Translations under genes and position numbers: made by a program
From: Deltaproteobacteria bacterium
GTDB taxonomy: Bacteria; JAGRBM01; JAHCIT01
Length of the DNA stretch: 43,297 bases
Assembly: GCA_026129095.1 (NCBI GenBank)
Contig: JAHCIT010000014.1
Coordinates: forward strand, 1-43,297
Reading direction: 5' to 3'
In this document: positions 17,285 to 43,297 of the stretch, piece after piece
Numbering within the stretch: the stretch's first letter is position 1
Layout of the letters: each line of letters opens with the position of its first letter
The notes under the pieces: model-generated
Database searches by the model: none
What the model was told of the DNA's origin: nothing
What the model saw: the letters and a program-made list of their open reading frames with translations, nothing else

Positions 17285-18322
17285 GTGGCAACCTTCAACA
17301 ACACCACCCGCGACATTCGCGCGAAGATTGTCTATTACGGGCCGGGGCAGTCCGGGAAAACCACGAATATCCAGTACATCCACGCCAAGCTGAAGGAAGA
17401 CCTGCGTGGCGACCTGATGACGCTGGCGACCGAACAGGACCGGACGCTGTTTTTCGACTATCTGCCGGTGGACCTTGGGGAGATCAGCGGGTTCAAGACC
17501 CGGATACAGGTCTACACCGTACCGGGCCAGGTTTTCTACAATTCGACGCGGAAACTCGTCCTGAAGAACGCCGATGGAATAGTGTTCGTTGCCGATTCCT
17601 CGCGCCGGTTCCTCAAGGACAACCTGGAAAGCTTTCAGAACCTTATCGACAACCTGCGGGACTATGGACTGAAGGTGACGGACCTGCCGCTGGTTGTCCA
17701 GTTCAACAAACGTGACGCTCCCGACGCAATGCCGGTCGCCGAGTTGCAGGAAAAACTCAACCGTGCCGGGTTTCCGCAGTTCGAGGCGGTGGCCAGTTCG
17801 GGCCAGGGAGTGCTTCCGACCTTTCAGGGGCTCACCAAGCTGGTCCTGAAGCACATCAAGGATACCACCATCGGGGGAATGCCTCCGCTTCCAGGGAGCC
17901 AGCGCCCGGTTCCGCGGCCGGCGCTTCGGATCTCACCCGCGCCTTCCGCGCCGGTTCCGTCGCTCGAAGGCGAGCAGCAGCTTGACGCCGACGAGGAGGC
18001 CCTGCTGGACAGTCTGGGGCCGCCGTCGACCGGGTCTGTGGCACCAGCAGCCTCCGCGCCACAAAAACCTGATGCCGTGCCGACGGCGGCGATACTGGCT
18101 GCTGCCGGCATCCCGGCGCCTGCGGCGAAGAATGTCGCGCCGGAAACGGTTTCCAAGATCGATCCGGTTCCCACGCGGCTTGCTGTAACCGGAATTGGTT
18201 CCATCGAGACCGCGCCCGGTGGCGGTATTCTGGTCACGGTCCGGCTCAAGGATCCCCTTACCGGAAAGACCTACGAGGCCAAGATCGACCTGTCGGTCCG
18301 GGCTCCTGCCGGAGGGAAATAG
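17285..18322 (+). CDS. MglA-family small Ras-like GTPase with long C-terminal extension (SofG-like orphan paralog)
   Basis: KIVYYGPGQSGKTTN (G1), DRTLFFD, YTVPGQVFY (G3), GIVFVADS and NKRD (G4) are MglA-family motifs; no mglB is adjacent. Confidence 0.9.
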   Translation: MATFNNTTRDIRAKIVYYGPGQSGKTTNIQYIHAKLKEDLRGDLMTLATEQDRTLFFDYLPVDLGEISGFKTRIQVYTVPGQVFYNSTRKLVLKNADGIVFVADSSRRFLKDNLESFQNLIDNLRDYGLKVTDLPLVVQFNKRDAPDAMPVAELQEKLNRAGFPQFEAVASSGQGVLPTFQGLTKLVLKHIKDTTIGGMPPLPGSQRPVPRPALRISPAPSAPVPSLEGEQQLDADEEALLDSLGPPSTGSVAPAASAPQKPDAVPTAAILAAAGIPAPAAKNVAPETVSKIDPVPTRLAVTGIGSIETAPGGGILVTVRLKDPLTGKTYEAKIDLSVRAPAGGK

Positions 18323-18448
18323 GCCCGCTTTTGCCTAAGTGTATCATAATGCTAGGCTCGCTGCCCCGCATGGACCTGTTGTGCGGTACCTGAACCGGCG
18401 GCCGGATATCCCCGGCGCCGGCATGAAAGCGACTCTGGCCCTAACCCT

Positions 18449-20257
18449 ATGGAACCCTCATCACGCTCCCTCAGGCTGCAGCCCCTTGATGGCTGGCAGC
18501 GAACCCACCGTAATCATGAATTGACCGCAAAGGATGCGGGGCAGGAAGTGGTCCTGTTCGGCTGGGCGCATTCAAACCGTGACCACGGCGGCGTCATCTT
18601 TATTGATCTCAGGGATCGTTGGGGGATCACGCAGGTGGTGGCTGATCCGGCCCACAGCAAGGAAGCGCATGCCCATGCCGATCTTGTCCGCGGCGAATTC
18701 GTGCTGGCGGTAAGGGGCCGTGTCCGGTCCCGGCCAAAGGACATGATCAACCCGCGCCTTCCGACCGGCGAGATCGAGGTGCTGGTGGACGAACTCCGGA
18801 TCCTGAACACCAGTGCGCCGCCGCCGTTCCAGATAGACGACAAGAGCGAGGTGAACGAGAACACTCGTCTCAAGTACAGGTATCTCGACCTCCGCCGTCC
18901 CGTGGTGCAGAGGCCATTTGTGCTCCGGCACGAGATCATGGCGGCCACCCGGCAGTATTTGAACCGGAACGGGTTTCTGGATCTGGAAACACCGATGCTC
19001 ACCAAGTCGACGCCGGAAGGCGCACGGGATTTTCTCGTTCCCTCACGGGTCAATCCTGGCCGCTTTTATGCCCTGCCCCAGTCACCGCAGCTGTTCAAGC
19101 AGATACTGATGGTGTCGGGCTTCGATGCGTACTACCAGATCGTCAAATGCTTCCGCGACGAGGATTTGCGGGCCGACCGGCAGCCTGAATTTACGCAGAT
19201 CGATATCGAAAAGAGCTTCCTTACCTGCGAACAGATGTACGCCCTCATCGAGGGGCTCCTGAAGGAACTGGTGAAGGTCTCCCGGGGCTATGACATTTCC
19301 ACTCCTTTCCCGCGGCTCACTTACGCCGAGGTGATGGAGCGATATGGCTCCGACAAGCCAGACACCCGGTTCGGCCTTGAGCATCTCACGGTGACCGACC
19401 TGTTCAGGGGGTCCGGCGTCAAGGTATTCGCCGCGCAGGTGGAGTCTGGCGGCATCGTCAAGGCGATGAATGCCAAGGGCGGCGGCCAGCTCTCGCGGAG
19501 CGAGATCGACTCGTTGACGGACCTGGTGAAGATACACGGAGCCAAGGGGCTTGCGTGGATCAAGATCAACGAGGGCGGTGCGTGGCAATCGCCAATAGAG
19601 AAGTTCCTCTCGCCTGCCGAGAAGGACGGACTCAGGGAACGGCTGAAACCCGAAGTCGGCGACATCCTTTTCTTCATGGCCGACAAACCGGCGGTTGCTC
19701 ACGCGGCCCTGTCGGCCGTGCGGCTGCATCTGGGAGCGAAGCTGAACCTCATTGACCAGGCGAAGCTGAACTTCCTGTGGGTGACCGACTTCCCCATGTT
19801 CGAATTCGACGAGGCGGAAAAGCGGTATGTGGCGCTCCACCATCCGTTCACCGCGCCGCGGGACGAGGACATTCCACTCCTTGACACCGACCCGCTCAAG
19901 GCGACGGCCCAGGCATACGATATCGTGCTGAATGGCCTGGAACTGGGCGGCGGCTCGATCCGTATCCACCGGCAGGATATCCAGCAGAAGGTTTTCAGCG
20001 CGCTCGGACTGACGGCCGAGGAGTCACAGGCAAAGTTCGGGTTCCTTCTTGACGCGCTGCAGTTCGGAACGCCGCCCCATGGGGGGCTGGCGCTGGGTCT
20101 TGACCGGACCGTCATGCTGCTGGCCGGAATGCACTCGATCCGGGATGTGATCACCTTCCCCAAGACCCAGAAGGGGGTAGATCTCATGACCGACGCCCCG
20201 GGGGAAGTAGATGCAAAACAGCTTCTGGAGCTCTCGATCCGTATCCACCGGCCCTGA
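18449..20257 (+). CDS. aspS: Aspartate--tRNA ligase
   Basis: RDHGGVIFIDLRD, RLKYRYLDLRR, STPEGARDFLVPSR, FRDEDLRADRQPEFTQ and PPHGGLALGLDR. Confidence 0.98.
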   Translation: MEPSSRSLRLQPLDGWQRTHRNHELTAKDAGQEVVLFGWAHSNRDHGGVIFIDLRDRWGITQVVADPAHSKEAHAHADLVRGEFVLAVRGRVRSRPKDMINPRLPTGEIEVLVDELRILNTSAPPPFQIDDKSEVNENTRLKYRYLDLRRPVVQRPFVLRHEIMAATRQYLNRNGFLDLETPMLTKSTPEGARDFLVPSRVNPGRFYALPQSPQLFKQILMVSGFDAYYQIVKCFRDEDLRADRQPEFTQIDIEKSFLTCEQMYALIEGLLKELVKVSRGYDISTPFPRLTYAEVMERYGSDKPDTRFGLEHLTVTDLFRGSGVKVFAAQVESGGIVKAMNAKGGGQLSRSEIDSLTDLVKIHGAKGLAWIKINEGGAWQSPIEKFLSPAEKDGLRERLKPEVGDILFFMADKPAVAHAALSAVRLHLGAKLNLIDQAKLNFLWVTDFPMFEFDEAEKRYVALHHPFTAPRDEDIPLLDTDPLKATAQAYDIVLNGLELGGGSIRIHRQDIQQKVFSALGLTAEESQAKFGFLLDALQFGTPPHGGLALGLDRTVMLLAGMHSIRDVITFPKTQKGVDLMTDAPGEVDAKQLLELSIRIHRP

Positions 20258-33636: not shown

Positions 33637-35436
<1,800 letters not shown>

Positions 35437-35437
35437 C

Positions 35438-36337
35438 ATGACCGATGAAGTTTCCGCCGGTCTTGAGGGCCTTTCCGGCGCGCACTTGAAGGAAGCCGCC
35501 CGGTCCTATGTGGCCGAGTCGCGCTGGATTCGCCGCAAGCACCGGAAGGTGCTGGCCCCGGCCGTTCTGGAACGGCTGGAGGCGATGGAGACTGCCGTCT
35601 CGGACCGGATGGACGGAGATGCCGGCGCCCTGAAAACGGCTCTTGGTGATCTGGTGCAGTCGATCGAGGTGGATCTCGCCCACTACCGCCGGTCGCGGAC
35701 GGTGGAGTTCCTGGAATTGCTGGGTTTTGCGTTCCTGCTGGCGCTCCTGATCCGGACGTTCATCGTGCAGGCCTATGTGATCCCGTCCGAGAGCATGGTG
35801 CCGACGCTGCTCAGGAACGACTATCTGCTGGTCTGGAAGCCGGCCTACGGGATCAAGGTGCCGTTCCGGCATGACTGGCTGGTGAGGTGGGGCCGGCCGA
35901 AGCGGTGGGACGTGGTGGTGTTCGTTCCCCCCCAGGAACTCGGAAAGAAATATCTCGACCAGGAGGATTTCATCAAGCGGGTGGTGGGGCTCCCAGGCGA
36001 CCGGGTAGAACTGGTCGACCGCGTTCTGTATCTCAATGGCGAACCGGTGCGTGACGAGTGGGCCCACTGGATTGACGGCGAACTGAGCGGGCACGGGGAG
36101 TTCGGACCGTTCGTGATTCCGCCCGGCCACTATTTCATGATGGGCGACAACCGGGACCGCTCGCTTGATTCCAGGAGCTGGGGGACCGTGCCTGAAGATG
36201 CTCTCGTGGGCCCGGCGGCATTCATCTACTTTTCGACCGACAGCACCTCTCCCGGTGGCCTGACCGGTCTGGTGCAGGGGATCGTCCGGTTCCCGTTCGA
36301 TACCCGCTGGCGGCGTCTCGGCCGGATCATACGCTGA
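35438..36337 (+). CDS. lepB: Signal peptidase I
   Basis: IPSESMVPTL (catalytic Ser), FIKRVVGLPGD (Lys) and GDNRDRSLDSR; ATG 1 nt after the lepA stop. Confidence 0.95.
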   Translation: MTDEVSAGLEGLSGAHLKEAARSYVAESRWIRRKHRKVLAPAVLERLEAMETAVSDRMDGDAGALKTALGDLVQSIEVDLAHYRRSRTVEFLELLGFAFLLALLIRTFIVQAYVIPSESMVPTLLRNDYLLVWKPAYGIKVPFRHDWLVRWGRPKRWDVVVFVPPQELGKKYLDQEDFIKRVVGLPGDRVELVDRVLYLNGEPVRDEWAHWIDGELSGHGEFGPFVIPPGHYFMMGDNRDRSLDSRSWGTVPEDALVGPAAFIYFSTDSTSPGGLTGLVQGIVRFPFDTRWRRLGRIIR

Positions 36338-36371
36338 GACTGGCCTGCCGCCGCATGGCCGGAGCATCCTG

Positions 36372-36866
36372 ATGGCTGCTGTAACGCACAAGGGGTTTAC
36401 GCCAGAGGATCATCGCTGGATGGGCCGTGCGCTCGCGGCCGCCCGCCGGGCTGCCGCTGCCGGGGAGGTCCCCGTGGGGGCTGTCATAGTGTCCCGCTCG
36501 GGGAAGTTTCTGGGTTCCGGACGGAATCGCCGGGAACAGGACAGCGATCCCACCGCTCACGCGGAACTGGTGGCCCTGCGCCGTGCCTGCCGGCGGAGCC
36601 GGAACTGGCGGCTTCCGGGTGCGACGGTCTATGTGACCCTGGAGCCGTGCCTCATGTGCCTGATGGCACTGAAGAATGCCCGCGTCGCACGGGTAGTATA
36701 TGGGGCGAGCGACCCCAAGCGCGGGGCCGCCCGCTGGGGGGGCCTGGACATCCCCGAAGACGGGAACCTGAACCCGGTCCGCTGCGAGGGCGGGCTTGAC
36801 GCAGACGCCGCCGGGCCGCTACTCAAGGCCTTCTTCAGGGACCGCCGGCGCAAGGCCGGTTCCTGA
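36372..36866 (+). CDS. tadA: tRNA-specific adenosine deaminase
   Basis: EVPVGAV, DPTAHAE and TLEPCLMC zinc-binding motifs. Confidence 0.93.
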   Translation: MAAVTHKGFTPEDHRWMGRALAAARRAAAAGEVPVGAVIVSRSGKFLGSGRNRREQDSDPTAHAELVALRRACRRSRNWRLPGATVYVTLEPCLMCLMALKNARVARVVYGASDPKRGAARWGGLDIPEDGNLNPVRCEGGLDADAAGPLLKAFFRDRRRKAGS

Positions 36867-36892: not shown

Positions 36893-36982
36893 GGAGAGTT
36901 GGCCGAGTGGCTGAAGGCGCACGCTTGGAAAGCGTGTATAGGGGAAACCCTATCGTGGGTTCGAATCCCACACTCTCCGCCA
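36893..36982 (+). tRNA. tRNA-Ser (anticodon GGA)
   Basis: Acceptor stem GGAGAGT/ACTCTCC, anticodon arm GCACGC-TTGGAAA-GCGTGT, long variable arm, T-loop GGTTCGAATCC, encoded GCCA end. Confidence 0.97.
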
Positions 36983-38452
36983 GTCACCGCCCTTGTTTCC
37001 TTCGGCGATCAGATCGAACGGAAACGCCAAGGAATATTCGACGGTTCCGTTCCTCACCTGAAGGTTTGTACACAGGATTTTCGAGATTCTCGCGAGCGCC
37101 CTGGGGCTCGCCGAATCCAGCGTGGTTTCGAGCTCTTCGGCGAGTTTGTACGCCGCCTCGACCTGGTCTGCTGCCGCGTGCGTCTCTTCGCGCTCCAGCT
37201 CCCTCAGCCCGATCTCGGCCCTGTCCCGTTCGGCCCTTAGCGCCCCGGTTTGTTCACGGTAGGTGGCGGAATCGACATCGCCACTGGTCATGGCCTCAAA
37301 CGCCCTCGCCAGCTTGCGTTTCAGAACATCCAGACGCGCTTCCAGCGCGGCCCGTTTCGCCGCCCTGACCTCATGGGCCTTGCTCCGGAATTCGTCGAGT
37401 CCGGCCATCAGAAGTCCGGCGGCGGCGGGGGGCAGGATCGCCCGGCGGGCGATCCCGTCCAGCCGCCTCAGGGCCTCGCTCTCTGCGAGGAAAGCGTGCC
37501 TGTTGCCGTTGCGCTTGCAGGTCCCGCAGAACCCGTAGGTGTATTTTCCTTTCTTGGCGGCAAAGAACGTCACCGAATGGCCGCATTCGGCACACTGGAA
37601 GACGCCGCTCAGGGGCCTGGGTTCCCGGATCTTCTTCTCCGTCCGGCGCGTGTCCGAAAGACGGAGCCTGATGCGTTCGTGCGTCTCCATGTCGATGAGC
37701 GGCTCGTGCTGGAAGTTCGTGACCAGCTTCCCTTTGGCATAAAACGGCCCGGCAAAGACAGGATCGACCAGCCACCGGTGAAGCGCCGAACGTGAAATGG
37801 GCTTATCCTGATACGTAATTCCGAGTCTCTTGGACTCTTTGACCAGTACGTCGAGGGAGTAGTTGCCGGTGGCGGCGGCTTCGAGAAGCTCCCTCACCAG
37901 CGGCCCCTGCACCGGGTCGGGTTCGATGCCGGTACGGGGCACCTTCCGGTATCCGGGCGGTGCCTTGTAGCTCCAGTATCCAAGGCTCGTCTGCTGCCTG
38001 ATGCAGGACTTGACGCGGGCCGACAGATGCCGCGTCTCGCTCCGGGCGAACATCGCCATCATCTCGAACCGGTCCCACTCGGACGGAGGGGCATCGGCAT
38101 GGAGATGAAAACGGTCCAGCGCGGCATGAAGGTGCTTGCCGTGCCTTTTCACCAGGTCCTCCAGCCGCGCATGGTCCCAGGAGTTGCGGTTCGAGCGGTC
38201 CACCTTGTGGAAGACCAGATGGGGCACGTCGCCGGAGGCGGCAAACTCCCTCAGCATCGCCTGGAACTCCACCCGCTCGTCGTCGAAGGTGGCCGTTTCG
38301 GCCACCTCCCACGTTTTGACGAGATCGAGGCCGTTCGCGTCGCAATAGGCCCTGATCGAACCGGTCTGGAGGCCGAGCGAGATGCCGCCCCGTGCCTGGT
38401 CCTCGGAACTCACGCGGGCGAAGCCGAAGGCTCTTGAAGATATCGTTGCCAT
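36950..38452 (-). CDS. Large serine recombinase (integrase)
   Basis: FARVSSEDQ catalytic Ser motif, [13 protein letters not shown] recombinase domain, Zn ribbon CAECG...CGTC, then a coiled coil; GGGAGG RBS before ATG 38452. Confidence 0.93.
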
Positions 38453-38507
38453 GAATGTTTCGCCTCCCAAAGTCAGCCTGCGAGCATCCGGCAGTTCCGG
38501 CCAAACG

Positions 38508-38786: not shown

Positions 38787-39008
38787 TCAGGAGTCGCACG
38801 CCTGGCCTTCCGGGGCCTTCGGGTGGATCAGGAACCGGTAGCTCTTTCCGGCCCTGACCGTGACGCACCGGATACCGCCCCTCACGATCTCCCCGGTGAC
38901 CGAATAGTCGAAAAACCCGTGATCGAGCCCCTCTTCCAGAACCTCGACGAGTTTCCGGATGGCTTGCTCCAGCTCGGTCCTGTCCAGGTGGGGGTTCCGG
39001 TGCGGCAT
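38787..39008 (-). CDS. Small hypothetical protein
   Basis: 73 aa, co-oriented; helix followed by HGFFDYSVTGEI...VTVRAGKSYRFLI beta-meander. Confidence 0.6.
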   Translation of the reverse strand: MPHRNPHLDRTELEQAIRKLVEVLEEGLDHGFFDYSVTGEIVRGGIRCVTVRAGKSYRFLIHPKAPEGQACDS

Positions 39009-39024
39009 GACGGGGGGTATCCAG

Positions 39025-39288
39025 TCAGGTCAGCCTGAGGTTCTGGAACCTGCGCACCGGAACCAGCCCGATGGCGTCCCGGCGGACCTGGAATCGCACG
39101 AGACCGCTTTTGTGAAGCTCGGCGATGATCTCGCCGAACTCGTCGCCCGTGATGAAGTAGCCAGCGGCATCGAAGGACTGCTTGACGGCCCTGATGAACC
39201 TGCCGGCCTGCGGGTGGCCGTTCCACCGCTCGCACAGCAGCCGGTAGACGGTCATCGCGCCCGGGGAGAGCTGTTCAGCGTTTTCCAC
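39025..39288 (-). CDS. Small hypothetical (winged-helix-like) protein
   Basis: 87 aa; GAGGAAG RBS-like sequence; overlaps the upstream gene; IIAELHKSGLVRF is wHTH-like. Confidence 0.55.
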   Translation of the reverse strand: MENAEQLSPGAMTVYRLLCERWNGHPQAGRFIRAVKQSFDAAGYFITGDEFGEIIAELHKSGLVRFQVRRDAIGLVPVRRFQNLRLT

Positions 39289-39730
39289 GGCGCTTCCTCC
39301 TCACCCACTCGAACGGAAGGGAATAAACCTCCATCTGCCGGGCGACCTCGCCGTCGATCTTGATGGTCTTTTCCTTCCCCGTAATCGTCATTCCTCCCTC
39401 GTGGTAGATGCAGAGGTAACCCATGAACGGTTCGCCGGTTTTCGGTTTTCCCAATTCGCCGACCCACATGGGGAGGTATCCGGATTCGAAATAGCCCCAG
39501 AACCGGTCCAGAAGCATCGGGATATCCTCGTGCCGGGCACCGATCTCGACAAGCTTGTTGGCGATCTCCGCCCGCCGGATATCATTCCGGGTCCACCAGA
39601 CGGGCGTGCGTGGCTTGCCTGTCCAGGTGGCTGGCTGGACATAGCCCGCCCGCACCAGGCGCATGAGCTTCGGATAGCTGATATCCAGAATTCTGGAGAC
39701 CGTCTCGCTGTCCAGGAGGGTTTCGGTCAT
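39275..39730 (-). CDS. MerR/Xis-like HTH DNA-binding protein
   Basis: LDSETVSRILDISYPKLMRLVRAGYVQP...WWTRNDIRR matches the MerR/excisionase HTH pattern; GAGGA RBS. Confidence 0.75.
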   Translation of the reverse strand: MTETLLDSETVSRILDISYPKLMRLVRAGYVQPATWTGKPRTPVWWTRNDIRRAEIANKLVEIGARHEDIPMLLDRFWGYFESGYLPMWVGELGKPKTGEPFMGYLCIYHEGGMTITGKEKTIKIDGEVARQMEVYSLPFEWVRRKRRGKR

Positions 39731-39745
39731 TTGGGGCCTGTCCTC

Positions 39746-39803
39746 ATAGTTTCACCACCGGAAATATAGCCCGCCTCCGGAATAGTTTCAAGATCGAAAT
39801 TAT
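39746..39803. promoter_or_regulatory. Two tandem 22-bp imperfect palindromes (operator-like)
   Basis: ATAGTTTC-N6-GGAAATAT (39746-39767) and ATAGTTTC-N6-GAAATTAT (39782-39803), immediately upstream of the HTH gene. Confidence 0.55.
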
Positions 39804-40206
39804 GCCCGGCCGCTTTTTCCGCGGAATTCACACGGGCGGGTCTTGCCCCCGCCACGCCCGAACCGCCGGAATCCAGGCGCTTCCCGGACTCACACCGGAG
39901 CTGCGTCGCCCCTTGCCGGAACCGTGACGGCCTGCGGCCGGCTGCAGGGCGCTTTTCGCCGGGTACACAACCTGGGGCGAGGCATGAAGCTGCTACCCCC
40001 GGCGTGCTCATTGCGCGACTGGCTGCCGGAGTTTCCCATGCCCGGATGCCCCAGGCATGTTGATCCGGCGAACCACCCCTGACCTGGAGACTGGAACACC
40101 GGATGCGGATGTCATCGTGACGACGGCCGCCGAATCACCAGGAATTGCAGCGGACGGCCAACCCGGATCGTCCCGGTTCCCGCACGGTACAAGGACATCC
40201 AGCGAT

Positions 40207-40298
40207 TCCGGCCGAACTTCGACCTCGTGGAACTCCGGCCGAACTCCGACCTCCATAAGAGATCGAACTTCGGCCTTTACAGGCCGTTCGAACGGCCT
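40207..40298. repeat. Iteron-like direct repeats plus a perfect 18-bp palindrome
   Basis: TCCGGCCGAACTYCGACCTC at 40207 and 40234, partial CGAACTTCGGCCT at 40264, and AGGCCGTTCGAACGGCCT at 40281-40298. Confidence 0.7.
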
Positions 40299-40312
40299 TA
40301 AATTGATGTTCA

Positions 40313-40401
40313 GCCGGGCGTGCGCGACACGGTGAATCTCCCTGCCGTGGCCTACGAGAGTAGGCAGCATGTAGGGGTGGGAGTCCTACCGTGCGTCCGG
40401 C
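40313..40401 (+). ncRNA. Candidate structured non-coding RNA
   Basis: A 12-bp closing stem with G-U pairs encloses a GCCTAC-GAGA-GTAGGC hairpin and a GTAGG-GGTGGGAGT-CCTAC T-loop-like hairpin. Confidence 0.35.
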
Positions 40402-40403
40402 AT

Positions 40404-40874
40404 TCATATTGAGACAACCTCATCCAGCGTCCACAATCCGAGCATCCCCTTGCACGCCGGGCCGTCCACTCTCCGGACGTTCGCCAAAACCCAGCCAAAT
40501 AAGACTTCACCGACAGCGGGTTCCGTTAATCCATAGAGGAGCACCCGTTTCCTTTCCGCTGGGCTTGTCCTCCAGCTTCCGGTGATCCTATGGCAGCCAA
40601 CTAGGTCGGCGACGGCCACGATGCGACCAATAGGTAGGTCAGTCCGGTCGAAGTAGCAGGCTGCCTTGGTGAATTCTGGATTTACGGTCCTGGCCATCCA
40701 GGTCCGCAGCGCTTCGGCGTTGGCCGTACGAGCCTGCTTCGTCAGTTTTCCGCGACCTGCGTGGATCAGCAACTGACCACGATAGCTCGTGGGCCACGAG
40801 CGCATCTCCCATGATTTGAAACCATCGGCGATAAGTGATGCCCAAGGCTGGACGATAGTGAGAGCCTTGGGCAT
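40404..40874 (-). CDS. ASCH domain protein
   Basis: KALTIVQPWASLIADGFKSWEMRSWPTSYRGQLLIHAG (GxKxxExR signature) and a C-terminal KGMLGLW; TGATG overlap with the upstream gene. Confidence 0.92.
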   Translation of the reverse strand: MPKALTIVQPWASLIADGFKSWEMRSWPTSYRGQLLIHAGRGKLTKQARTANAEALRTWMARTVNPEFTKAACYFDRTDLPIGRIVAVADLVGCHRITGSWRTSPAERKRVLLYGLTEPAVGEVLFGWVLANVRRVDGPACKGMLGLWTLDEVVSI

Positions 40875-41467
40875 CACCCACCCTGCTTTCGGTATAGGAC
40901 TGTCCCGTCACGGAGCAGCCGTTGAACGTCGATATCTCGTGATCTGCGGAATGAAACGACAAAAGTCGCCTGTCCGCTTTTCTCGGCACGGACCACGGCC
41001 ATATAGGTCTTACCGCTGGACCTGATCACAGCTACACGCTCCCCCTTACCATCAGTCGCCTTCTGCCTGACAATAAAGTCGGGGTGTTCACCCAGCTCCG
41101 GTAGAATCCGGTAGTCCTCTATCTTGAGTTCAGGATGCTTCTCGCGCTGCTTCCAAGATATACCACTGTTGATAGCCGCCACACGATGGCGTGCGCCGAT
41201 CGCTTGGGCGGCTTCATCCGACAGGCGGAGCACCGGAAATTCCCCTTTCGGGAACTCCGAATGGAACCAGTCGTCGAAGAGCCGTCCGTTCACCACGTCC
41301 CGGATTGCCACCTGGGCGATCATCGCAGGCGCGCCCTCGAGCTTGTCGGTGAGAAGGCGGTAGGCCGACTCGACGCGCAGCTTGCCGGGATTGGTGTCGA
41401 AGCCCGGGGTCACTCCCCTGGGGACCAGCTCCACGTCGCCGGTCCGCTTGTTCTTCCATTCGGCCAT
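40874..41467 (-). CDS. N-terminally truncated phage MuF-like protein with C-terminal PBECR-like (barnase/RelE-fold) nuclease domain
   Basis: WKNKRTGDVELVPRGVTPGFDTNPGK resembles the end of Mu gpF; KQREKHPELKIEDY...TYMAVVR...FVVSFRR resembles PBECR nucleases (recognised by eye). Confidence 0.7.
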   Translation of the reverse strand: MAEWKNKRTGDVELVPRGVTPGFDTNPGKLRVESAYRLLTDKLEGAPAMIAQVAIRDVVNGRLFDDWFHSEFPKGEFPVLRLSDEAAQAIGARHRVAAINSGISWKQREKHPELKIEDYRILPELGEHPDFIVRQKATDGKGERVAVIRSSGKTYMAVVRAEKSGQATFVVSFRRSRDIDVQRLLRDGTVLYRKQGG

Positions 41468-41556
41468 CGGTGACGGCGGGCGCGCTGTTTTAACGGGAAC
41501 GGAGCGCCGCTGCCGGTGGCCGGTGAGCCGCCCGCCGGGATCGCGGCGAAGCTGGG

Positions 41557-43296
41557 GTGTCAGTTGATCAGGTCCGCGTCGGCTCCGGCGGCGAGGGAAC
41601 TGGAGCAGACGACGGTCCGGAGACAGGTGTCAGTTGATCAGGTCCGCGTCGGCTCCGGCGGCGGCAAAAACAGTTTGCAGCGGCCCCGATCCCGTGGTGT
41701 CAGTTGATCAGGTCCGCGTCGGCTCCGGCGGCCCGTCCTCCGTGGAGGCCCCTGCGTCCAGCTCGACGTGTCAGTTGATCAGGTCCGCGTCGGCTCCGGC
41801 GGCGATCAGTGCCAGCTCGCGGGGGTGCCGTTCTTCTTGTGTCAGTTGATCAGGTCCGCGTCGGCTCCGGCGGCGGGAGTTGATGGTAGTGGCCCCTGTG
41901 CTAGTCGGGTGTGTCAGTTGATCAGGTCCGCGTCGGCTCCGGCGGCATTTCGCCCTTCAGGGTGGCGATCAGCCCGTCGTCGTGTCAGTTGATCAGGTCC
42001 GCGTCGGCTCCGGCGGCACCGGATTCTGATCCCCTTCGACGTGATGAGCCGCCTGTGTCAGTTGATCAGGTCCGCGTCGGCTCCGGCGGCGTCGACGAAG
42101 GAGAACGCCGTCCACGTCCGGGCGTGTCAGTTGATCAGGTCCGCGTCGGCTCCGGCGGCTCTCCCGGCGATGCTGCACGCGATACGGACACAGGGTGTCA
42201 GTTGATCAGGTCCGCGTCGGCTCCGGCGGCGGTCGCCCACCTGATCGCCCACGGGCAGTGGGACCTGGTGTCAGTTGATCAGGTCCGCGTCGGCTCCGGC
42301 GGCCATCCAGTCCTACCAGCGCGGCGCAGACGGGAAAAGTGTCAGTTGATCAGGTCCGCGTCGGCTCCGGCGGCCTCTACCCCTTTCGTCACGGGTATAC
42401 TCGTAACAAGTGTCAGTTGATCAGGTCCGCGTCGGCTCCGGCGGCGGGCGACGAGCGTGCCGCCGCCGGGCCAGTCGGCGTGTCAGTTGATCAGGTCCGC
42501 GTCGGCTCCGGCGGCGACGGTCGAGGAGCGCGTGTAGCATGTATTGGCGGTGTCAGTTGATCAGGTCCGCGTCGGCTCCGGCGGCACTCGCAACTGGTTG
42601 ATCAGATCGGGCGACATGAAGTGTCAGTTGATCAGGTCCGCGTCGGCTCCGGCGGCGCCGGGAAATCGCCAACAAACGGGAAAAACAAATGTGTCAGTTG
42701 ATCAGGTCCGCGTCGGCTCCGGCGGCCATTTCAACCCGCTTGCGCTGTTTAACGACGAGAAGTGTCAGTTGATCAGGTCCGCGTCGGCTCCGGCGGCGGC
42801 GCCCGGCGTCTCCGCCTCGATCTCCAGGGCGTCCGTGTCAGTTGATCAGGTCCGCGTCGGCTCCGGCGGCTGACACTGGAGCAGATGCACGTGGAGCTTT
42901 CCGTCGTGTCAGTTGATCAGGTCCGCGTCGGCTCCGGCGGCCAGGCGGCGCTCTTCGCCGAGATGCTCGACGGCGGGTGTCAGTTGATCAGGTCCGCGTC
43001 GGCTCCGGCGGCGTTAAACAGCGCAAGCGGGTTGAAATGGGCCTGATAGTGTCAGTTGATCAGGTCCGCGTCGGCTCCGGCGGCGCTCCACAGGTGGACG
43101 GTCAACGTAGCCAATAACGTGTCAGTTGATCAGGTCCGCGTCGGCTCCGGCGGCACTCTATTTCCCATTCACGGCTACGCCTTATTATAGTGTCAGTTGA
43201 TCAGGTCCGCGTCGGCTCCGGCGGCTCAAGAGGCTCCAGATTGGCGAAGCGCCGAAGCTGGTGTCAGTTGATCAGGTCCGCGTCGGCTCCGGCGGC
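41557..43296 (-). CRISPR. CRISPR array: 25 identical 36-bp repeats (+ strand GTGTCAGTTGATCAGGTCCGCGTCGGCTCCGGCGGC), 24 spacers of 33-37 bp, truncated by the window end
   Basis: Repeats read directly at 41557, 41627, 41697 ... 43190, 43261 with unique spacers. The minus orientation is inferred only from the ...TGACAC 3' end and is less certain than the array itself. Confidence 0.98.
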
Positions 43297-43297
43297 T

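Follow-up and report, generated by a model that had tools for sequence, protein, structure and literature searches.

Among the Cas12b proteins with solved structures, the closest to the one considered here is ChCas12b, the type V-B effector of a Candidatus Hydrogenedentes, for which PDB 9KLN-9KLQ are available (Li et al., NAR 2025, PMC12204704). In that report, ChCas12b is described as a protein of 1496 amino acids (aa) that belongs to a clade distinct from AacCas12b and BthCas12b and uses a 5'-TTN protospacer-adjacent motif (PAM), with catalytic residues D767, E1220 and D1364 and PAM-contacting residues P289, G290 and K292 (PMC12204704). For its single guide RNA (sgRNA), three stems and two duplexes between repeat and anti-repeat sequences are described there, the last five bases of the repeat making up duplex 2, and the long clade is said to differ from the Aac/Bth clade in helical-I, OBD, helical-II and sgRNA topology (PMC12204704). 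The locus compared with these systems in this study was recognized from an array of the clustered, regularly interspaced and short palindromic repeats known as CRISPR at the right end of a 43,297-nucleotide (nt) stretch of DNA from a Deltaproteobacteria bacterium. This stretch, referred to below as the window, is the entire contig C6 (JAHCIT010000014.1, assembly GCA_026129095.1) of a 3.67-Mb genome in 23 contigs. The array in the window and a second block of the same repeat on contig C9 are very probably two parts of one type V-B array, which has at least 44 repeats and was split in assembly, the window holding its promoter-distal, oldest part.

The array and its cas genes

The 36-nt repeat is present in the window in 25 exact copies, the first at 41557-41592 and the last at 43261-43296, with start-to-start distances of 69-73 nt and 24 complete spacers of 33-37 nt each. 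The number and invariance of the repeats and the range of spacer lengths that an earlier note on this DNA had reported were borne out by this exact-copy count, and the letters of the repeat as read there on the minus strand are identical. The reversed repeat pattern, used as a control, had no match in the whole genome. Contig C6 ends 1 base past the 25th repeat, so that the array is truncated there. The self-fold of the repeat was not significant (minimum free energy -5.9 kcal/mol, z = 0.26; 111 of 200 shuffles folded equally well or better), in agreement with the description of the repeat in the same note as having only a weak stem.

Nineteen further copies of the repeat were found at C9:29157-30466, on the opposite strand and 16 nt from the end of that contig. 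The repeat is confined to the ends of C6 (25 copies) and C9 (19 copies) and occurs on no other contig of the genome; the 44 copies, terminal repeat included, are all identical, and both blocks together hold 42 complete spacers of 33-38 nt. The two blocks are oriented to fit head to tail; each is bordered by unique sequence on one side and truncated by the contig end on the other. A public DNA contig of run X1 (10,001 nt) spans positions 17600-18710 of locus L009, the part of C9 that carries the cas genes, and thus reaches from the cas12b 3' end through the intergenic region to the end of the first repeat; beyond position 18710, its next 30 letters are the sequence that follows the terminal repeat of the window. 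This contig ties both unique flanks to the repeat in compatible orientation, and because it joins the leader side on C9 to the flank in the window, the two blocks are regarded as a single array with 44 repeats or more. The passage of the X1 contig through a single repeat may be due to collapse of the array in the assembly graph or may represent a real single-repeat variant.

The location of the blocks on different contigs, together with a link that runs through one repeat only and that could be produced by collapse in a de Bruijn assembler, would also be expected if the window array were an orphan, separate from the cas12b-linked array on C9 and having only the repeat in common with it. Such an arrangement is highly improbable in view of the restriction of the repeat to two contig ends with a head-to-tail fit, the single unique flank and contig-cut end of each block, and the identity of all 44 repeats; even if separate, the window array would use the same Cas12b and trans-activating CRISPR RNA (tracrRNA).

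The genes for a cas4/cas1 fusion, cas2 and cas12b, followed by a conserved tracrRNA block, a leader and the array, are all located on one strand of C9, and all of the cas genes are full length (Table 1). The predicted effector matched the NF033949 Cas12b equivalog model with 852.2 bits (cut-off 150) over profile positions 1-1252 of 1253 and the PADLOC Cas12b model with 703 bits, and its best match among solved structures was PDB 9kln, ChCas12b, with 1043.7 bits over residues 44-1488. AacCas12b and BthCas12b aligned over about 200 RuvC residues only (phmmer; E 3e-20 to 4e-13; 51-75 bits). The RuvC triad is kept, with D767, E1220 and D1364 of ChCas12b aligned to D804, E1221 and D1374 (numbering of P0001). 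Database relatives of the effector are 1375-1545 aa long and at most 47% identical; several have been named Cas12b by NCBI, and they come from Planctomycetota, Phycisphaeraceae, Kiritimatiellae and others. The full-length likeness to ChCas12b and the length of 1458 aa place the protein with the ChCas12b-like long-form clade, unlike the Aac/Bth clade of about 1100 aa. By every defining feature tested, the predicted effector is a long-form Cas12b of type V-B, and the locus appears to be intact and functional, as judged from its full-length cas genes, its 44 identical repeats and two spacers that overlap on one target.

These results support the assignment of the array in the earlier note to a class 2, tracrRNA-dependent, Cas12b-like type V system, which can now be specified as V-B on the strength of the equivalog match and the conserved tracrRNA block. 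The leader, tracrRNA and effector that the note had placed beyond the right edge of the window are all found on C9, tied to the window by the X1 contig. None of the outcomes that the note had named as contrary was observed, and the adjoining genes are cas12b, cas2 and cas4/cas1 instead of a type I or type III cassette. The suggestion of a new Cas12 variant was not sustained, since the protein matches a known Cas12b equivalog model end to end.

Comparison with ChCas12b showed a protein of similar size (1458 aa versus 1496 aa) that aligns over its full length and has identical RuvC D/E/D residues. It is nevertheless a separate protein, whose nearest database relatives are 47% identical to it. 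The locus has in common with AacCas12b and BthCas12b (C2c1, Alicyclobacillus/Bacillus; PDB 5U30, 5WQE, 5WTI) a Cas12b with a single RuvC site, a tracrRNA, cas4/cas1 and cas2 genes, a 36-nt repeat and a short 3' handle, but only the RuvC region of those proteins aligns and the protein encoded here is about 330 aa longer.

A further difference from ChCas12b is the presence of two overlapping open reading frames (ORFs) between cas2 and cas12b. One encodes a 175-aa nucleotidyltransferase-like protein of the DUF6036/DUF2204/AbiEii kind (Pfam E 6e-4; Atlas feature score 0.98) and the other a 119-aa partner without a family. Together they resemble a pair of the toxin-antitoxin type that was inserted into the cas operon; neither ORF had a match in PADLOC.

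The candidate tracrRNA and the direction of transcription

In order to examine the region between cas12b and the array, seven related loci from named genomes were considered, of which five have an array (L011, L012, L014, L015 and L016) and two (L013 and L017) have none in the sequence examined and were dropped. The five loci, from Planctomycetota and other metagenome-assembled genomes, encode Cas12b proteins 31-42% identical to the present one (tblastn best segment). All five have their array downstream of cas12b, on the strand of that gene, and repeats with GACAC at the end; they share with the present locus a homologous tracrRNA block and leader motifs, but have different repeat bodies and anti-repeats, which covary. 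The location of cas2 is not constant: in L012 and L015 this gene follows cas12b and precedes the array.

The block between cas12b and the array could be aligned in all six loci (the five relatives and the present locus), and RNAalifold analysis of this alignment predicted three stems, in which 10 of the 19 predicted pairs show compensatory double changes. Stems 2 and 3 flank an invariant GTGTC that is complementary to the 3'-terminal GACAC of the repeat, which is likewise invariant. The anti-repeat is located downstream of stem 2 and varies in sequence among the loci; in an all-against-all duplex calculation, the anti-repeat from the own locus was the best partner of the repeat in six of six loci. 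An anti-repeat, for which the earlier note had proposed a search, is thus present between cas12b and the array on C9 and pairs best with its own repeat. It was located by eye and confirmed by the comparison between loci, and its duplex with the repeat comprises 18-19 base pairs (bp) with two mismatches (partly by eye). An RNAduplex scan of C9 for anti-repeats was uninformative, as GC-rich DNA gives many chance duplexes that score like the real site.

The predicted tracrRNA gene is about 105 nt long (about C9:28854-28960), and a leader of about 200 nt is located upstream of the array on C9. Past the anti-repeat there is a terminator-like hairpin, which has a T-rich tail (one site versus 0.5 expected in shuffles). 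No Rfam family was found at E <= 1 over the tracrRNA, the leader and the first repeats, and a sigma-70 promoter scan of L009 18200-18800 yielded no sites.

Motifs in the leader (L009:18470-18674; six Cas12b loci, alignment A1) are kept from Planctomycetota to Bryobacteraceae. The motif TCTTTGACAA directly follows the tracrRNA, and letters resembling GGTTGCGAGC directly precede the first repeat; a GCGAG...CTCGC hairpin is conserved as well. These motifs may be promoter or spacer-integration signals.

Likeness to ChCas12b extends to the RNA: the predicted tracrRNA has three stems and two repeat:anti-repeat duplexes as in the ChCas12b sgRNA, and the last 16 nt of the repeat are one position off the repeat part of that sgRNA (by eye, from the transcription primers). 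The sequence of stem 2 differs, with compensatory changes. The repeat had been called unusual in the earlier note, a description that does not hold for this group, in which five of five related Cas12b arrays also end in GACAC; its letters are those of a typical repeat of the ChCas12b-like long clade.

The sense of the CRISPR RNA (crRNA) most probably corresponds to the plus strand of C9 and hence to the minus strand of the window, on account of the strand of the cas genes, the strand of the anti-repeat, the G-U pairs in the stems and the likeness of the repeat end to the ChCas12b handle. Transcription would therefore run from right to left in the window. The right-to-left transcription proposed in the earlier note agrees with this direction, which comes from the strand of cas12b and the anti-repeat, the G-U pairs and the ChCas12b sgRNA likeness; the RNA contigs, described below, do not cover the array.

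In the proposed mechanism, the array would be transcribed from the leader, and each repeat would pair with the tracrRNA in two duplexes, the 18-19-bp anti-repeat duplex and a second one between the last five repeat bases, GACAC, and GUGUC of the tracrRNA. Cas12b would bind this dual RNA and use its only RuvC site (D/E/D) to cut matching DNA next to a 5' PAM, and Cas4/Cas1 and Cas2 would insert new spacers at the leader end. We infer, in the same conditional sense, transcription, RNA processing, the PAM and present-day activity of the system.

A k-mer scan of the genome detected only one further array, on contig C23, where C23:115662-121052 encodes Cas9 (TIGR01865, 510 bits, 1252-aa frame) and a second Cas1 (109 bits). 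In the C23 array, a 36-nt repeat unrelated to that of the window occurs six times, and the spacers measure 29-30 nt. Since the only other array of the genome has an unrelated repeat and its own Cas9, the array in the window is assigned to Cas12b, and a type II assignment of the window array was rejected because the Cas9 on C23 has its own six-repeat array with a different repeat. A type I array was not supported either: TIGR01587 (cas3_core) gave four weak matches in the genome, none of them over the cut-off, in a search that did not include Cas6, Cas7 and Cas10 models.

Because 36-nt repeats occur in many type II arrays and the genome encodes Cas9 (510 bits) and Cas1 on C23, production of crRNAs from the plus strand of the window, or use of the array by the type II system, was also considered. 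Either is very hard to reconcile with the data and would be surprising. The repeat of the array adjacent to Cas9 is identical to the window repeat at only 18-22 of 36 positions (global alignment), and its spacers are shorter. The anti-repeat is located on the cas12b strand, the conserved G-U pairs in the tracrRNA stems would be C-A mismatches on the other strand, and the 3' end of the repeat matches the ChCas12b crRNA handle. Moreover, with the plus strand as crRNA sense, the 5' PAM position of two overlapping spacers would be GTC and GCC (derived from the spacers), which is not T-rich. Transcription of the array from right to left as part of the type V-B locus thus remains the preferred interpretation.

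Spacers, targets and the PAM

The overlap just mentioned is between spacers C6_04 and C6_08, which share 27 nt with 100% identity on opposite strands. As the 27-nt core of C6_08 is the reverse complement of a sequence within C6_04, one target appears to have been sampled on both strands, and this overlap fits repeated sampling of one invader.

The exact repeat had no match in a scan of metagenome contigs. A 653-nt DNA contig from another study (run X3, record 5) matches 33 nt of the repeat (L009:18684-18716) with three differences and has unrelated flanks; this contig is probably an array with a related repeat from another strain or organism.

Several results do not favor, or fail to corroborate, the interpretation of the two blocks as one working type V-B array. 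The X1 link runs through one repeat, with collapse possible, and therefore proves adjacency of the flanks to this repeat in a compatible orientation and not the exact length of the array. All 44 repeats, terminal one included, are identical, so that repeat decay is uninformative on polarity. Contigs of metatranscriptome run X5 cover only L009 17600-17724 and 18038-18354 (the 3' end of cas12b), with none over the tracrRNA or the array, and these contigs are strandless; this lack of cover says nothing on the expression or strand of the tracrRNA and array. None of the protospacer searches yielded a target. That of the 42 spacers against the own genome gave a longest exact match of 19 nt, which is the chance level. 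Searches against cultured phages with both array halves gave 8 + 5 records, all partial and with E >= 0.01, the best of which (H2) lies mostly on repeat letters by coordinate arithmetic. Plasmids, searched with the window half only, gave 118 records, of which the 15 listed all have E values of 0.04 or more. The 27-nt core of C6_04/C6_08, the sole query in exact scans of viral and of metagenome contigs, had no match in either. Finally, the PAM-contacting residues P289, G290 and K292, as reported for ChCas12b, are not all identical in the present protein, P289 and K292 being unmatched in the phmmer alignment.

Because these residues are not all kept, a TTN PAM is an assumption for the present locus, and the altered PAM loop could confer a PAM other than TTN.

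Table 1. Positions of the repeat array, the cas genes and neighboring features. Positions without a prefix refer to the window (contig C6); those of the cas locus are given for contig C9 and for locus L009.
Feature	Position	Strand	Basis or remark
Type V-B array, probable promoter-distal part, 25 repeats and 24 spacers	41557..43296	- (probable crRNA sense)	Repeat/spacer listing
Non-repeat flank, 89 nt, beside terminal (probably oldest) repeat	41468..41556	.	Sequence past terminal repeat
Spacer C6_08	42727..42761	-	27-nt core is reverse complement of part of C6_04
Spacer C6_04, partner of C6_08	43013..43048	-	Spacer cross-match
cas4/cas1 fusion, 565 aa	C9:21330-23027 = L009 10848-12545	cas strand	NF049935 Cas4g/Cas1g, 613 bits, cut-off 560
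cas2, 96 aa	C9:23044-23334 = L009 12562-12852	cas strand	TIGR01573, 42.5 bits, cut-off 24.5
Two small ORFs	C9:23355-24238 = L009 12873-13756	opposite to cas genes	Between cas2 and cas12b
cas12b, large ORF	L009 13859-18340; likely start 13964 = C9:24446-28822 (1458 aa, P0002)	cas strand	NF033949
Gap between cas12b and array, 334 nt	L009 18341-18674		Contains predicted tracrRNA block and leader
Array, 19 repeats	from L009 18675 = C9:29157	cas strand	
tRNA-Ser(GGA), integration site of neighboring element	36893..36982	+	Context
Large serine recombinase, 3' end overlaps tRNA-Ser 3' end	36950..38470	-	Resolvase, Recombinase, Zn_ribbon_recom; phrog_95 integrase 5e-56
Six small ORFs, recombinase to array (last ends 89 nt from array)	38882..41467	-	
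Small ORF	40404-40877	-	ASCH domain / phrog_3193
Small ORF	40874-41467	-	Weak phrog_220 / PBECR3 likeness

The neighboring tRNA-Ser element and the mobility of the locus

In the window, the array is preceded by an element with a large serine recombinase at tRNA-Ser(GGA) (Table 1). Among the six small ORFs between the recombinase and the array, four had no family match, and no PADLOC match was obtained for the ORFs of the element. Directly upstream of the tRNA gene, at 35384-36866, the window encodes a signal peptidase I (Peptidase_S26) and a TadA-like cytidine/adenosine deaminase, ordinary housekeeping genes that are kept in family relatives at 71-78% DNA identity.

In the family relative G001 (L022, on contig C25 of that genome), the 3' end of the same tRNA gene is overlapped by a different serine recombinase, which is 28% identical over 224 residues, and the flanking DNA at tRNA-Ser is 71-78% identical to that of the window. 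Given recombinases of 28% identity versus flanks of 71-78%, tRNA-Ser(GGA) has been used independently by different elements. Both recombinase ORFs, from two genera, end in a tRNA-encoded ...DSNPR tail, and the contigs of all three family relatives break just past tRNA-Ser(GGA).

At the other side of the cas genes, a giant ORF of more than 3540 codons with many repeats of about 93 aa occupies the minus strand of L009:1-10620, continues into L010 on C9 and starts 228 nt from cas4/cas1, in divergent orientation. Its ortholog in G001 is a 4115-aa frame that is 61% identical over the N-terminal 500 aa.

It is conceivable, although rather unlikely, that the whole V-B module (cas4/cas1, cas2, cas12b, tracrRNA and array) is cargo of the serine-recombinase island at tRNA-Ser and moves with the element, which would leave the type V-B assignment untouched. 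This possibility is suggested by the co-linear order of the tRNA-Ser 3' end, recombinase, small ORFs, array, tracrRNA, cas12b, cas2 and cas4/cas1, by the location of all cas and element genes on one strand, and by the lack of a Cas12b match in any of the 30 other genomes searched, which are 59-100% complete (three of the same family, two of the same order and 25 more distant). It is also suggested by the region upstream of the giant-gene ortholog in G001, where part of a DNA polymerase is encoded but none of the cas genes. The base composition points in both directions: cas12b has a GC content of 55-57% versus about 59-66% for the contigs, but the ORFs of the element (0.59-0.64) and cas4/cas1 and cas2 (0.64-0.66) do not set the block apart.

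Among the five related loci, none has a serine-recombinase element beside its V-B locus as the present one does, but L012 (Pirellulaceae) has the same layout, in which a tyrosine integrase adjoins tRNA-Gln at its 3' end beyond the array, while L015 and L016, the other two related loci with downstream flanks, have no integrase there. In this Pirellulaceae genome, L012:11527-13410 carries the integrase (Phage_integrase, 3.6e-12), which is distal to the V-B array and overlaps tRNA-Gln with its end.

No end of the element could be defined: on C6 beyond 37000 and on the whole of C9, a search revealed neither a displaced tRNA 3' fragment nor a direct repeat resembling an attachment (att) site, and the 14 kb of L012 analyzed likewise gave no att repeat. 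Serine recombinases need only a very short core, and the missing att repeat is for this reason weak evidence either way.

In conclusion, the sequence evidence indicates that the locus is a type V-B CRISPR-Cas system of the ChCas12b-like long clade and thus a known kind of system. It adds one more long-form Cas12b locus with a predicted tracrRNA, a leader and 42 complete native spacers, in a host that has a Cas9 system as well and comes from a sparsely sampled lineage. The practical value is modest, the protein being a divergent ortholog (47% identity to the nearest database protein) of a family of genome-editing nucleases, for which a guide RNA could be designed directly by analogy with ChCas12b. 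The wider biological interest comes only from the position of the array beside an integrative element. If the module does move with that element, it would be an example of mobile class 2 immunity, a self-mobilizing Cas12b system, and together with the parallel in L012 this would point to islands as the carriers by which long-form Cas12b loci spread.

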